Shown here: in pieces, positions 1 to 7,975 of the stretch
Layout of the letters: each line of letters starts with the position of its first letter
Numbering within the stretch: position 1 is the stretch's first letter
Virus record (IMG/VR): IMGVR_UViG_3300025502_000013
DNA from: an uncultured virus (IMG/VR IMGVR_UViG_3300025502_000013)
Taxonomy: Duplodnaviria > Heunggongvirae > Uroviricota > Caudoviricetes
DNA: 64,000 bases
Direction: 5' to 3' (one strand)
The notes under the pieces: generated by a model
Told to the model about the DNA's origin: nothing
The model's database searches: none
What the model saw: only the letters and a program-made list of their open reading frames with translations
Made by a program: the position numbers and the translations under genes

Positions 1-2
1 AG

Positions 3-371
3 ATGCAGCACGACAAGGAGAACGAGAAGCCACTCAGGGAGAAGTACGACAAGGAGTTGGAGGCTTGGACTCAGAAGGTCAAGAAGTACGCTCTCACCAT
101 GCCCAAGCCTAAGGACATGGACATGGTTGGGGTTGGGGGAGGCTACTACCACCGTACTGGCTCGGGCAACCCTGAGGATATTACTGTTCAAATAGTCCTT
201 GCGGTTCCGGCTAATAAGGTTCCAGAACGCCCCGAGGCTCCTGACGCTGTTGCGGCTTGGCAGTACCGTGATGCGGTGGAGAACATTGAGAACGCGCTCC
301 GGTTGCTCCGTATGACCGACCAAGAAGAAATCAGCACGGGTACTTACAGCAAAATTGCTCAGTACCTCTAA
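3..371 (+). CDS. Hypothetical protein, probably 5'-truncated by the window edge
   Basis: ORF ends just before the first terminator/promoter unit. Confidence 0.75.
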   Translation: MQHDKENEKPLREKYDKELEAWTQKVKKYALTMPKPKDMDMVGVGGGYYHRTGSGNPEDITVQIVLAVPANKVPERPEAPDAVAAWQYRDAVENIENALRLLRMTDQEEISTGTYSKIAQYL

Positions 372-494
372 CGGCTGGACAGCCCCTCACTACGGTGGGG
401 GTTGTTCGCGTAAAAAATATCGGGCACGGTCTATACAATAAAGACATACCGACACCGAGTAAAAGGCTGGGTGCGGTCTACTGAGGAGGTAGTA

Positions 495-824
495 ATGATT
501 ATCGAGAGTGCGGTCAGGGATAGTTCCCTGGAGTTGTACCTGGACAATGCTCACGGCATTGCCTTTGACACCTGCCACAAGATTTATGTCTTGATGGACA
601 GCGAGCAGATGGGTCTGATGCGGGAGTATGAGTATGACCCTTTGATTTCTTCAGACGAGATGACACCTGCCGAGATGTACGAAACGGTGGCTGGCTGGTA
701 CGAGGAGTCTTGCCAACTGCGGTTTATCCAAGCCGTCACCACAGCCCCAGATAACCCCAACGAGGGCTATGTAGATATAGTTCCCCAGTTCCTACTGTTC
801 AACGAGGACGAGGACGAGGACTGA
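495..824 (+). CDS. Acidic hypothetical protein
   Basis: GAGGAGG RBS before ATG 495; fills one cassette. Confidence 0.85.
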   Translation: MIIESAVRDSSLELYLDNAHGIAFDTCHKIYVLMDSEQMGLMREYEYDPLISSDEMTPAEMYETVAGWYEESCQLRFIQAVTTAPDNPNEGYVDIVPQFLLFNEDEDED

Positions 825-918
825 TAAGGAGAGTGCCCCTCTACGGAGGGGTACTTTCCGTAAAAAGTGGCGTGGTGCGCCGATACAATAAAGACACGGA
901 CAGCAAAGGAGGACAATT

Positions 919-1101
919 ATGTCTGAAAAAGTGACGGTGGCACACCTGCCTACCTGTAACTTCTGTACCAACCTGGCAGGATATGACGCTAGGACGGTGT
1001 TAGGCGCGTGGGCTTACCTATGCGAGGAACATTTCTACCCCATGACCGAGGGACGGCTTGGGACTGGCTACGGTCAGAAACTAATCCTGGAGGAGGCATG
1101 A
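919..1101 (+). CDS. Small Cys/His (zinc-finger-like) protein
   Basis: AGGAGG RBS; CNFC and CEEH motifs. Confidence 0.85.
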   Translation: MSEKVTVAHLPTCNFCTNLAGYDARTVLGAWAYLCEEHFYPMTEGRLGTGYGQKLILEEA

Positions 1102-1244
1102 TGGCAATAGTAGTTAGGCGCTACGGCGTTACACCAACACGCGCCGGTCTGGTATCGACCTGCGTGGAGTGTGGGAGAGTATTCGACCTCACCGATGAAA
1201 CTGACGCTAACGAGTTAGCCTACGGACACGACTGCGAGGTGTGA
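1098..1244 (+). CDS. Small zinc-binding hypothetical protein
   Basis: GGAGGAGG RBS, ATGA overlap with the previous gene; CVEC and HDC motifs. Confidence 0.8.
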   Translation: MMAIVVRRYGVTPTRAGLVSTCVECGRVFDLTDETDANELAYGHDCEV

Positions 1245-1342
1245 GTGACACGGCACGCCCCCTCTCCGGAGGGGGTGCTGTCGTTGTCCCGTAAAAAATT
1301 GGGAGTAGTGGGAATAAAATAAAGGTATCAACGGGAGGAGGA

Positions 1343-1519
1343 ATGATGATATGTCAATACTGTAATGAGAACCCTGTCCGGGAAGGCTGGGCTATCACCT
1401 GCGCCGTGTGTACTTTCATGTGTACACGGTGCAAGGAGGACACACCCTACGAATTAGGAGTGTCCTGGGATAGGTACTGTGACCCCTGCGGTGTTGCGGT
1501 GGCTTCTGTCCCATTCTAA
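1343..1519 (+). CDS. 58-aa protein with four CxxC motifs (not in ORF track)
   Basis: GGAGGAGG RBS; translates MMICQYC...CAVC..CTRC...CDPC...; fills one cassette. Confidence 0.8.
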   Translation: MMICQYCNENPVREGWAITCAVCTFMCTRCKEDTPYELGVSWDRYCDPCGVAVASVPF

Positions 1520-1638
1520 GCGACTCCCCCTCTCCGGAGGGGGTTTCGCCGTTCCGTAAAAAACATGGAGGGGGGCTTATACAATAAAGACATGACGGGG
1601 GGACACTAGGGCTTTCCGCATAACCTGAGGAGGACACC

Positions 1639-1977
1639 ATGGGTGACCGTTCGAATATCGCGATTGTCTACCACACCGGAGAAACTATCTACCTGTACGG
1701 GCATTGGCTCGGGCATGAAAGTCAGAGGATTGTCGCACGCGCAATTTCTGAGGGCAGGCGAATGGAAGACGAGTCTTATTTCGCTCGGATTCTTTTTAGC
1801 AAAATGATTGCTGAGGACATTGCCGGCGAAACCGGCTTCGGTATCGCACCGTATGAGGTAGACCAGGACTACGGCAATCCCACAGTTACCGTGGATTTTC
1901 GTGACCACACGGTGATGCACGACAACTGGGATAACGCTGTCCCGTTCGCTGACTACCCCCGGCTAGTACTGGTATAG
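1639..1977 (+). CDS. Phage hypothetical protein (MGDRSNI...YLYGHW type)
   Basis: Strong RBS; fills one cassette. Confidence 0.85.
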   Translation: MGDRSNIAIVYHTGETIYLYGHWLGHESQRIVARAISEGRRMEDESYFARILFSKMIAEDIAGETGFGIAPYEVDQDYGNPTVTVDFRDHTVMHDNWDNAVPFADYPRLVLV

Positions 1978-2091
1978 CCTGACGGGAGCCCCTCACTTCG
2001 GTGAGGGGCTACCCCGTTCCGTAAAAAATTGGCTACGGCATGGATACAATAAAGACAACAGCAGGGGAAATACCCCTACGGGAGGAGAGTC

Positions 2092-5982: not shown

Positions 5983-6091
5983 GAGCCGTACCCCCCAGCC
6001 CCCACTCCGGTGAGGGTTGGGGCAGTGTGCTCGTAAAATTCGATCGAAGCACGGGTTATACTAAAAACATCACAAGGGAAAGGAGACAATA

Positions 6092-6244
6092 ATGTCTTAC
6101 ACTTACAAAATAGTGTTTGTGATAATCACCCTGGGAGTGGTACTCTCTTTCCACGACACCTACTGGCCTTGGGCTATGGTTCCTCTGGTGCTTTCGGCAC
6201 TGGTTGGCGCTATTGGGCTCAGGCTCGGGGGTCGAGGAAAATAA
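6092..6244 (+). CDS. 50-aa protein with two predicted membrane segments (not in ORF track)
   Basis: AAGGAG RBS; two hydrophobic stretches and a basic C-terminus. Confidence 0.75.
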   Translation: MSYTYKIVFVIITLGVVLSFHDTYWPWAMVPLVLSALVGAIGLRLGGRGK

Positions 6245-6386
6245 GTTTTCCTCCCAGGGGAAAAGGCAGACCCCCTACTTCGGTAGGGGGTTCTGTCATT
6301 CCGTAAAAAAGACATAGCACGGAGAATATAATAAAGACATAGACAGGGAGACAAAAGGGCTTTCTGCTATAACCTGGGAGGTCATT

Positions 6387-6596
6387 ATGGCTAAGCAGTT
6401 TCGAGTCCTCGCAAGCAAGTCGGGCTTCAAGACGTTCGACTTCACTTATGACGCACACGAGGAGTCATACGCTCGCAAGGTCGCTAACACACTGAGCGAT
6501 GAAAATTGGTCAGTGTGGTTTGAGACCCTCGATGACAAGCACCAGAGTGCGGTCATCAACGACCTAGACTTTGTCTTCGGCAAGACACAGTTCTAA
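6387..6596 (+). CDS. Hypothetical protein
   Basis: GGGAGG RBS; fills one cassette. Confidence 0.8.
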   Translation: MAKQFRVLASKSGFKTFDFTYDAHEESYARKVANTLSDENWSVWFETLDDKHQSAVINDLDFVFGKTQF

Positions 6597-6729
6597 GGCG
6601 CACGGCAGACCCCTGGCTTCGGCTAGGGGTTTTGTCGTTCCCCGTAAAATTCGATCAACACGACTTGTAGAATAGAGATATCACAGAGAGACACTAGGGC
6701 TTTCTGGATATCTGGGAAGGAAACAAATT

Positions 6730-6921
6730 ATGTATCAGGTAAAAATCTTTACACACAGAGATGCCTCGCTCTTCGCCGAGTCTGAGACGTTCCAGACTAG
6801 GGAGGAAGCCGATGCCTACGCCACGTCTGTTGGCACGGGAGAGGGCTACTGGACCGAGATTCACCACTCGCAGGCGGTGTGGAGCAACTTCACATCACAC
6901 GAGAGGCTTGCCCACCAGTAA
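6730..6921 (+). CDS. Hypothetical protein
   Basis: RBS; fills one cassette. Confidence 0.8.
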   Translation: MYQVKIFTHRDASLFAESETFQTREEADAYATSVGTGEGYWTEIHHSQAVWSNFTSHERLAHQ

Positions 6922-7044
6922 GCCCTCACCCCAGGACCCCACTTCGGTGGGGCTTCTGGCATTCCGTAAAATTCGATCGACCCTAGGAATACAATAAAGA
7001 CATAGACAGCAGGGAAATGCCCTGTGTCTACCTGGGAGGCACTA

Positions 7045-7266
7045 ATGGCTCACAACTACAAGGTCAATGGCTGGTTCGGTTCTACCACGGCAGGGTGGCG
7101 TATCGCCCTGGAGCCTGCTTTCTTCGAGGACATCGAGGAGGCACGGCTCTATGCCCAGGGACTCCACCTAGCCAATCAGGAGGCTAACACGGAAGCCTAC
7201 GAGGTCGAGGTCTTCAGACTTCGGGAGCGAGGTCTTGCTCTCCGAGTCCTGGAGTACAGCGCCTAG
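7045..7266 (+). CDS. Hypothetical protein
   Basis: GGGAGG RBS before ATG 7045. Confidence 0.8.
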   Translation: MAHNYKVNGWFGSTTAGWRIALEPAFFEDIEEARLYAQGLHLANQEANTEAYEVEVFRLRERGLALRVLEYSA

Positions 7267-7349
7267 GACTACCCCAGGGACCCCACTTCGGTGGGGTTTC
7301 TGGAGTTCTTGCGCCGTAAAAATCCCGGAGTGAGATTGGTACAATGGAA

Positions 7350-7440
7350 CCACACCACAAGGGAGCACAGGGCTCCTCGCGGAGCTCTCCACGAGAGCAA
7401 GCTCTAGCTCATCACCAGGACCCCACTTCGGTGGGGTTTC
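7350..7440 (+). ncRNA. Candidate ~90-nt small RNA from an ORF-less cassette
   Basis: Intact promoter at 7315-7345, two hairpins and a terminator at 7418-7440; no start codon between them. Confidence 0.45.
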
Positions 7441-7516
7441 TGGCGTTTATAGGTTTTTACGATAAAGGTGTGTAGGGTAGTGGCAACTAACTAATATTTA
7501 TTTCTAGGGGGGAATA

Positions 7517-7975
7517 GTGGCTAATCCAGATACGGACTTACAAGGGGTAGGGGTCTACTTAGAACAAAGATCCCCTAACAGACTGACCGGAGCTACTCAC
7601 CAGCTGTTTATTTTTCCGGAGGGCTATACGCCTACACTTCAAAGGATTGTCCCTAAGGTTTTCCATAGGCATCTCAACAGGTACGCCCCACGGAAGAACT
7701 GGATCTGTGCGCCATTACACCTTAACGAGGTTGACTTTTCTGATGAGGAAACTGTGGCTGAGTTACTACTACCTCCGCTGGCTCGAGCTGTATGGGGAGA
7801 GTACACACTGGTTGGGAAGCCACTACTCTTCGAGGTATCAAAGAAGGACATGTTCGAGGTTGCTAGGAGAAAACTACCTACGCGGATTAATTTAAAGATA
7901 AAGACAATGCGGAGTGCTCACGGCTACCCAGAATCTGTAGTCGAGATCGAGAAGAAGGAGGAAGCAGATGGTTGA
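7517..7975 (+). CDS. Hypothetical protein
   Basis: 152-aa ORF overlapping the AAA gene start. Confidence 0.75.
   Translation: MANPDTDLQGVGVYLEQRSPNRLTGATHQLFIFPEGYTPTLQRIVPKVFHRHLNRYAPRKNWICAPLHLNEVDFSDEETVAELLLPPLARAVWGEYTLVGKPLLFEVSKKDMFEVARRKLPTRINLKIKTMRSAHGYPESVVEIEKKEEADG

Follow-up and report, generated by a model that had tools for sequence, protein, structure and literature searches.

In the bacteriophages T5 and BF23, Type I and Type II restriction is effective only when the sites lie in the first-step-transfer region, and sites elsewhere are tolerated (PMC10644984; PMC12455610). Here we describe a regional loss of restriction-type words in a stretch of 64,000 nucleotides from an uncultured virus (IMG/VR record IMGVR_UViG_3300025502_000013). 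In the following this whole stretch is called the window. Its left end carries an array of small-gene cassettes with repeated promoter-like elements, and GATC, together with several other short palindromes, is strongly depleted there. The GATCs which remain all sit at one fixed place in a sub-class of these elements, within a palindromic box.

The block, which extends upstream of the window, resembles the first-transferred block of T5 and BF23 in several respects. It is roughly 10 kb long, it consists of small genes mostly of unknown function (in T5 and BF23 these are expressed first), and it lacks sites which are present in the rest of the genome. On the other hand, virus family and host phylum are different, and at least seven words of 4–5 bp are purged here as compared to a few 6-bp sites there. 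In T5 the block lies in a long direct terminal repeat at the leading end, and the DNA is injected in two steps with a pause after the block, at an injection stop signal; the window is known from its sequence. Further on, the BF23 genes are arranged in two divergent operons (PMC10644984), whereas each cassette of the window has its own promoter and hairpin. Scanning the 23–30 early open reading frames (ORFs) against Pfam and PHROGs, we found no homologues of the T5 pre-early proteins A1, A2 and dmp. We therefore regard the block as an analogue and not as a homologue.

A second precedent comes from the Autographiviridae. In Marinomonas phages of this family a Type I motif is of consequence only within the first-injected part of the genome, and the authors describe restriction as a sub-genomic filter and point out that earlier surveys ignored the location of the sites (PMC12455610). 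What the Autographiviridae (Murciavirus, T7) have in common with our case is that restriction selects on the first-injected segment. There, however, one Type I motif was tested experimentally in podoviruses with transcription-coupled entry, whereas the words of the window are Type II-like palindromes and the evidence is computational. For T5-like phages, site counts have been tied to sensitivity in the BASEL paper (PMC8594841).

The array layout and the retained GATC have parallels of their own. In the host-takeover module of Bacillus phage SPO1, numerous small early genes are lined up, and every gene has a strong promoter and a terminator to itself. The array in the window has a similar layout and no homology to this module, and we know of no report that restriction words have been purged from the latter. 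In GATC (Dam)-regulated promoters such as IS10 pIN and Mu mom, GATC is part of a −10 or −35 hexamer or of a regulator site, and the enzyme which methylates it is known. A GATC fixed in the promoter region is common to these promoters and the window. In the window, however, a longer palindrome is conserved, and no DNA methyltransferase domain was found in the contig G001, which extends the window upstream (see below). Finally, Rusinov et al. in 2018 reportedly described genome-wide avoidance of restriction sites in phages, with short palindromic Type II-like words being under-represented. In contrast, the avoidance in the window is restricted to a single island whose edge measures about 1 kb, and relatives of the phage show two tiers of avoidance. 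We found no published description of multi-word site-free islands in actinophages. In our view the island is a clear and unusually clean new example of a known defence-evasion strategy.

Only seven GATC sites are present between positions 1 and 7565 (Table 1), and each begins exactly 10 nt past the C of a CGTAAA element. The next GATC is found at 7569, and 147 follow up to position 64,000. From the rate in the rest of the window 19.7 sites would be expected in this region and from a second-order Markov model 18.5. When we permuted the synonymous codons of the 23 island ORFs while keeping proteins and codon usage fixed (n = 2000), the expectation was 23.0 ± 3.3, and seven or fewer sites were reached in 0 of the 2000 shuffles. 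Outside the promoter boxes the count in 1–7565 is zero, an outcome with a probability of about 6e-9 under a Poisson distribution with its mean near 19. The purge is reached by context-dependent synonymous codon choice. Within the 23 island ORFs aspartate ahead of a codon starting with C is encoded by GAC in 17 of 17 cases (GAT 0/17), as compared to 35 GAT among 103 aspartate codons elsewhere. Likewise, isoleucine behind a codon ending in G is never ATC (0/18), while elsewhere in these ORFs ATC accounts for 31 of 58. In the same contexts 18 large ORFs from the rest of the window use GAT 75 times out of 216 and ATC 23 times out of 141.

GATC is not the only word affected. When all 256 four-mers are ranked by their depletion in 1–7565 relative to the rest of the window, palindromes take the first five places. 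Measured against this rate we observed no TTAA (33.4 expected), one GGCC at position 6165 (28.6), seven AGCT (46.2), four TGCA (26.1) and three ACGT (14.1). Two five-base words with a free centre are rare as well, namely GCNGC (2 against 36.7 expected) and GGNCC (8 against 24.4). CATG is missing only from the last 5.8 kb of the island (none in 2092–7848, 12 in 1–2091) and has the shortest of the site-free runs. With the codon-preserving shuffles the z-scores are −6.2 for GGCC, −4.9 for GATC and for AGCT, −4.3 for ACGT, −3.3 for TGCA and −3.2 for TTAA, and these palindromes fill six of the first seven places in the ranking of depleted four-mers. Altogether 16 palindromes of four bases exist. 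Nine of them, TCGA, GTAC, CCGG and CTAG included, have an absolute z-score below 2 in the island, and CATG is borderline with −2.08. Thus, palindromes are not avoided in general. In five control genes outside the block (5.9 kb) GGCC, GATC, AGCT, TGCA and TTAA are all at expectation. The depletion exceeds what composition, codon usage and protein sequence explain, and it concerns only some palindromic words. Being word-specific, strand-symmetric and regional, it bears the marks of selection that acts on double-stranded DNA and removes sites of the restriction type.

These counts can be compared with an initial annotation, which had been made by eye. Its seven GATC positions, their 10-nt offset from CGTAAA and its remark that GATC is common from 7569 onward are exact, and the scarcity it noted for GGCC, AGCT and TGCA, including the single GGCC at 6165, is borne out. 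Its word list was incomplete, as TTAA, ACGT, GCNGC and CATG had been missed. The computed observed/expected counts thus show a clear depletion, which is wider than had been claimed. Its suggestion of restriction-site avoidance is well supported by the palindrome-specific depletion under the codon-preserving null, by the undepleted control genes and by the recurrence of site-free gaps at the promoter array in nine of ten genomes (see below). Its idea that this DNA may enter early is a plausible one.

The left end of the island lies outside of the window. A near-identical contig of 75.6 kb, G001 (estimated 57% complete), differs from the window by 7 mismatches over positions 1–7600 and adds 22.4 kb upstream, so that 86.4 kb of combined sequence are available. 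Within the window, the summed counts of six words are 1, 2, 0, 4, 4, 1 and 7 for the first seven kilobases, as compared to 10–36 per kb from the ninth kilobase onward. Upstream of position 1 the island extends for about 1.6–3.9 kb, and the purged part corresponds to the right 9–11 kb of the array. Both edges differ in shape. On the left, the counts of seven words per 500 bp decrease gradually from 14 at −4500 to 0 at −1500. On the right, they remain between 0 and 4 as far as 7500, and over the next kilobase or so they climb to 9, 16 and 20. The site-free runs, each with a few internal exceptions, end on the right at 7383 (AGCT), 7569 (GATC), 7722 (TTAA), 7849 (CATG), 8007 (GGCC), 8375 (TGCA), 8388 (GCNGC) and 8409 (ACGT). 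Their left limits are scattered much more widely: −3953 for TTAA, −3124 for ACGT, −2974 for TGCA, −1874 for GGCC, −1615 for AGCT, −708 for GATC and +2091 for CATG. The runs of the individual words are therefore nested with a common right edge, and this right edge is the end of the cassette array.

The array comprises 28 cassettes of hairpin, promoter and small gene over 12.6 kb, from −5284 to 7315; nine of the promoter-like elements lie upstream of the window in G001 and 19 inside (Table 1). A cassette consists of a GC-rich tetraloop hairpin, the sequence yCCGTAAAA, a spacer of about 17 nt, TAyAATAAAGACA, a short leader, GGAGG and one to three small ORFs. To judge by this layout and the −10-like hexamer we take the repeated elements to be promoters, and they are called so below. 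The promoters in the table were taken from an alignment of the repeated CGTAAA elements. A strong hairpin precedes 23 of the 28 elements, including all 19 in the window. A terminator scan flags only a few of these hairpins because their T-runs are weak.

Seven of the nine promoters nearest to the right edge of the island carry the box TTCGATCGA(A), a palindrome of 8–10 bp directly behind the upstream CCGTAAAA element; we call them the G-class. Three copies are perfect 10-bp palindromes (TTCGATCGAA), three others contain TCGATCGA and one reads TCGATCAA. TCGATCGA occurs six times in 86.4 kb, each time in a G-class promoter. Accordingly, six of the seven GATC sites are also CGATCG, a word that is enriched in 1–7565 (6 against 0.7 expected). 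At TTCGATC(G)A the seven G-class promoters reach almost the maximal information content. In the other 21 promoters these columns carry next to none, and the spacer past CCGTAAAAAA is essentially unconserved. This supports the proposal of the initial annotation that GATC is kept at a functional position. The conservation of the box, its palindromic form and its constant position within the footprint of the polymerase are those of an operator or a promoter-specificity element, and it is probably bound by a protein. A perfect palindrome built from two abutting TTCGA half-sites unavoidably has GATC at its centre, and thus the retained word needs no role of its own.

We suggest that the island is DNA which functions before the phage is protected, akin to the first-step-transfer DNA of T5, and that the box serves a sub-class of promoters as a binding site for a protein. 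We would give this reading a probability of roughly 0.55. The island DNA would have to be intact and expressed before the phage disarms the restriction systems of the host, and it would be the first-injected or pre-early segment, T5-like in function. We infer that restriction enzymes are the selective agent. The box would bind a dimeric protein, which could be a repressor, an activator or a promoter-recognition variant, and would mark a regulatory sub-class of the promoters. GATC would then be a by-product of the half-sites and tolerated since the box is favoured more strongly than the word is disfavoured. The gene content beyond the array offers a matching context. Between the portal and the MuF-like gene the phage encodes a polyvalent protein of 4527 amino acids (Table 1). 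Its residues 4194–4481 match the structures 6i89 and 6sna of the plasmid anti-restriction protein ArdC with E = 2.4e-46, and according to Pfam it contains two ArdC-N/MPTase-PolyVal stretches, a UvrD helicase and RNase T-like domains. For the N-terminal approximately 2200 residues no family match was found. The predicted ArdC module would be an anti-restriction context and favours our interpretation.

Several observations weigh against this interpretation. Seven GATC sites would still leave the island open to an enzyme cutting at GATC. The leftmost five or six cassettes (−5284 to about −2600) have promoters of the same family and are unpurged, so that island and early cassettes do not simply coincide. 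What the site-free runs have in common is their right edge, at the downstream end of transcription and not at the start of the array, and this makes a poor fit to T7-style entry running in the direction of transcription. A common right edge would fit entry from that end, opposite to early transcription; a gradient in the age of the cassettes gives the same picture. The AAA-ATPase gene just right of the island (7968–9020) lies inside the island in the relatives G003 and G004 but outside in the window genome. No DNA-binding domain was found by Pfam and PHROGs in the early or middle small ORFs which could point to a protein binding the box. A scan with the sigma-70 consensus yielded 6 sites (4.3 expected), every one of them on the minus strand, and it missed all cassette promoters since their upstream element does not resemble TTGACA. 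Lastly, the stretch is present as assembled contigs in 20 runs labelled salt lake metagenome, which may be the source of the window. Four of these runs were aligned to the region, and public contigs of all four bridge the right edge. The contigs have similar depths on both of its sides (71.7 and 76.2, 77.2 and 80, 11.3 and 9.9), although contig depth cannot settle the presence of a terminal repeat.

It could be argued that the box has no function of its own, being part of a promoter variant which was copied along the distal array through duplication or gene conversion and has so far escaped the purge. The clustering of the G-class among the last nine promoters would be in line with this view. 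So would the two copies at 4987–5026 and 5574–5613, which are identical over about 40 nt and at which the public contigs break and collapse. Moreover, one low-depth contig of one run reads GATT at a box copy (depth 3.3 of 17.5), a hint that the site can vary. However, the spacers of the G-class outside the box and the upstream hairpins have diverged while the box is nearly invariant. A neutral GATC should also have decayed in some of the seven copies, given that GATC is being removed from all coding contexts. We therefore consider a functionless box unlikely, though it is the most serious competitor of a protein-binding box.

The relatives of the phage bear on a further alternative, the import of the cassette block from a lineage which avoids these words genome-wide. 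The AAA-ATPase gene mentioned above has 58 relatives in viral contigs, and each of the 58 loci carries its own highly repeated promoter-like motif. Some of these motifs are of the classical type, for example that of G004 (TTGACA...TGGTATAAT), which suggests transcription by the host RNA polymerase. Nine whole contigs (62–131 kb) and the window genome were scanned for improbably long site-free gaps using all 136 strand-symmetrised four-mers. An attempt to define the promoter motif as the most frequent 11-mer had picked tandem repeats in G005, G006, G009 and G010 and was replaced by this longest-gap scan. In nine of the ten genomes, that of the window included, at least one four-base palindrome has a long site-free gap overlapping the promoter cluster; the longest-gap scan revealed no such palindrome gap in G009. 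The word lists are different. G003 has an island without TTAA, ACGT, AATT, AGCT and TATA, G004 one without TTAA (21.2 kb), ACGT, GTAC, TGCA and CATG, and G002 one without ATAT and CATG; G007 and G008 have islands without TTAA, and in G010 a GATC-free gap spans 16.6 kb. Other words are scarce throughout: GATC occurs 0–11 times per whole contig in G002–G005, CCGG is nearly absent in G002, G003 and G004, and the whole G002 contig has no AGCT, no GATC and six GGCC. In G002, G003 and G004 there are thus two tiers, some words being gone genome-wide and additional ones only in a promoter-array island of 18–22 kb.

The promoter array has such an island in nearly all of these genomes, each lineage with a word list of its own, and this suggests that position or function drives the purge and not a single import. 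An import has its attractions since phages of this group are mosaic and some relatives avoid certain words genome-wide. In the first 50 kb of the phage DSL-LC01 neither TTAA nor ATAT occurs, and G002 is free of AGCT and GATC. DSL-LC01 has no regional island in these 50 kb, and the promoter family of the window is absent from it. The gradual left edge could also be understood in this way. However, island and promoter array coincide in nine of ten genomes with differing word sets, the purged and unpurged cassettes of the window genome share one promoter family, and nested site-free runs of seven words with one common edge are not expected from a single import. We regard such a history of the module as still less credible than a box without function.

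The initial annotation had also raised a methylation-sensitive switch and had suggested looking for a methyltransferase elsewhere in the genome. In such a scheme a host or phage enzyme would mark GATC or CGATCG in the spacer, and promoter activity would follow the methylation state. The fixation of GATC in promoters and its purge elsewhere agree with this, as does the fact that the sites are CGATCG in six of seven cases. GATC-directed systems also appear to be common in the hosts of the group, as judged from the low counts in G002–G005. Yet a six-frame search of G001 for the domains MethyltransfD12, N6_N4_Mtase and DNA_methylase (PF02086, PF01555 and PF00145) gave no matches, that is neither a Dam, an N6/N4 nor a C5 methyltransferase domain, with the reservation that, at an estimated completeness of 57% for G001, a phage enzyme could sit in unseen DNA. 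The one methyltransferase gene upstream in G001 is of the generic class I SAM (S-adenosylmethionine) type, and the large ORFs in the last 11 kb of the window include no DNA methyltransferase. Furthermore, GATC lies in the spacer, outside of the −10 and the upstream hexamer, and the palindrome runs past GATC to TTCGATCGAA, which the half-site model explains without methylation. In our view a methylation switch is improbable. Least of all do we expect that the boxes TTCGATCGA(A) act as a modification sensor on the leading few kilobases; their methylation or protection state, inherited from the previous host, would report the restriction background from which the incoming phage stems, and an early (anti-defence) promoter sub-class would be tuned to it. 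As a separate observation, GATC is located directly behind the −10 in many promoter copies of other lineages, namely L042, L043 and G008 (TATAATGATC, 12 copies in L042), and GATC is not avoided in L042.

What does the island mean more generally? The sequence alone indicates that in large actinobacterial siphoviruses restriction enzymes can select on one part of the genome with sharp borders. The island is a family trait with its own word list in each lineage. If the island is indeed the first-injected DNA, injection polarity and the extent of the pre-early region could be read from the genomes of uncultured phages. Under the same condition, the small genes of the island would be prime candidates for new anti-restriction functions, and the lists of purged words would be fingerprints of the restriction repertoires of the hosts. 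The retained palindromic box in turn is a concrete candidate for a regulatory element and open to testing.

The window belongs to a large uncultured siphovirus of Actinobacteria, as judged from its genes. It encodes portal, MuF-like, major capsid, tape measure and tail proteins as well as DNA polymerase, helicase, exonuclease, Sak4, SSB and a WhiB-type regulator. A homologue of the large terminase, sought to locate the packaging site, was not found in 86.4 kb. Among named phages the best relative is DSL-LC01, a metagenome-assembled Actinomycetia phage with 71% identity in the capsid protein, followed by large Microbacterium, Arthrobacter and Gordonia phages. The WhiB gene and these actinophage relatives are the only pointers to Actinobacteria as host group. 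Cultured phages of Microbacterium, Gordonia and Arthrobacter differ in the order of the ATPase and capsid genes. A blastn search with positions 1–8000 gave no match to named phages. In the viral contigs we found neither matches to the exact 39-nt promoter or to a degenerate promoter pattern nor relatives of the first ORF. Of the small proteins (23–30 early ORFs), only SSB (2092–2427) and a DUF2958 protein (5662–5982) match Pfam, and four others belong to PHROGs of unknown function.

Table 1. Positions of the island, the promoter-like elements and further features in the window (G-class elements carry the GATC box; the C given is the first base of CGTAAA)
Feature	Position	Strand	Basis or remark
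Restriction-site-poor island, part within the window	1..7382	none	Per-kb word counts
Boxless promoter-like element (CGCGTAAAAAA...TACAATAAAGACA)	407..446	+	Alignment; hairpin ahead
Boxless promoter-like element	857..896	+	
Boxless promoter-like element, −10 TAAAAT	1288..1327	+	
Boxless promoter-like element	1553..1592	+	
Boxless promoter-like element	2018..2057	+	Ahead of the SSB-like gene 2092–2427
Boxless promoter-like element	2462..2501	+	
Boxless promoter-like element	2765..2804	+	
Boxless promoter-like element	3116..3155	+	
Boxless promoter-like element	3519..3558	+	
Boxless promoter-like element	4059..4098	+	
G-class promoter-like element	4339..4378	+	Box TTCGATCGA at 4348–4356; GATC 4351; C 4341
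G-class promoter-like element	4652..4691	+	Box ATCGATCGA at 4661–4669; GATC 4664; C 4654
G-class promoter-like element	4987..5026	+	10-bp perfect palindrome TTCGATCGAA at 4996–5005; GATC 4999; C 4989
G-class promoter-like element	5574..5613	+	TTCGATCGAA at 5583–5592; GATC 5586; C 5576
G-class promoter-like element, CTCGTAAA variant, −10 TATACT	6030..6069	+	TTCGATCGAA at 6039–6048; GATC 6042; C 6032
Boxless promoter-like element	6300..6339	+	Amid the G-class
G-class promoter-like element, imperfect box, −10 TAGAAT	6641..6680	+	TTCGATCAA at 6650–6658; GATC 6653; C 6643
G-class promoter-like element	6963..7002	+	TTCGATCGA at 6972–6980; GATC 6975; C 6965
Last promoter-like element of the array, boxless	7313..7352	+	No ORF after it
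Candidate short non-coding transcript	7350..7447	+	From the last promoter to a terminator-like hairpin (7415–7447)
Sharp right edge of the island	7383..7570	none	Purged words reappear from here
Gene of the 4527-residue polyvalent protein	18750..32333	+	Between portal and MuF-like genes; Pfam matches

The last promoter of the array might drive a small RNA at the edge of the island. The candidate transcript consists of about 95 nt of structured sequence devoid of ORFs with a fold energy of −43.1 kcal/mol (z = −3.92 against 200 shuffles). Three AGCT sites lie within it, and its terminator-like hairpin is one of three copies of a direct repeat. No Rfam family was matched in the window, the candidate transcript included.

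Some observations were made in the surroundings. Directly upstream of the first cassette, G001 contains an AT-rich region (L060 16620–17010, about −5830 to −5440 in window coordinates) in which TTAATTAA occurs twice and CCGTACAAAGTT...AACTTGTACGG form an almost perfect inverted repeat. Further down, at L061 1160–1501 (about −3290 to −2950), a contig in the runs X1 and X4 swaps 340 nt for 355 others, a variant of part of the GP88-family gene region. To the right of the island, a direct repeat of at least 300 nt at 100% identity and with a spacing of 605 nt is found at 12274–13400, within 1.9 kb without an ORF of 120 or more amino acids; each copy contains an ORF of 74 amino acids on the minus strand which has no family match. 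It is followed, just ahead of the structural genes, by an ORF-free, C-rich stretch (13400–14200) with runs of the CCCCACCCC type and short tandem repeats with periods of 19–26, and this stretch could be a packaging or replication site.

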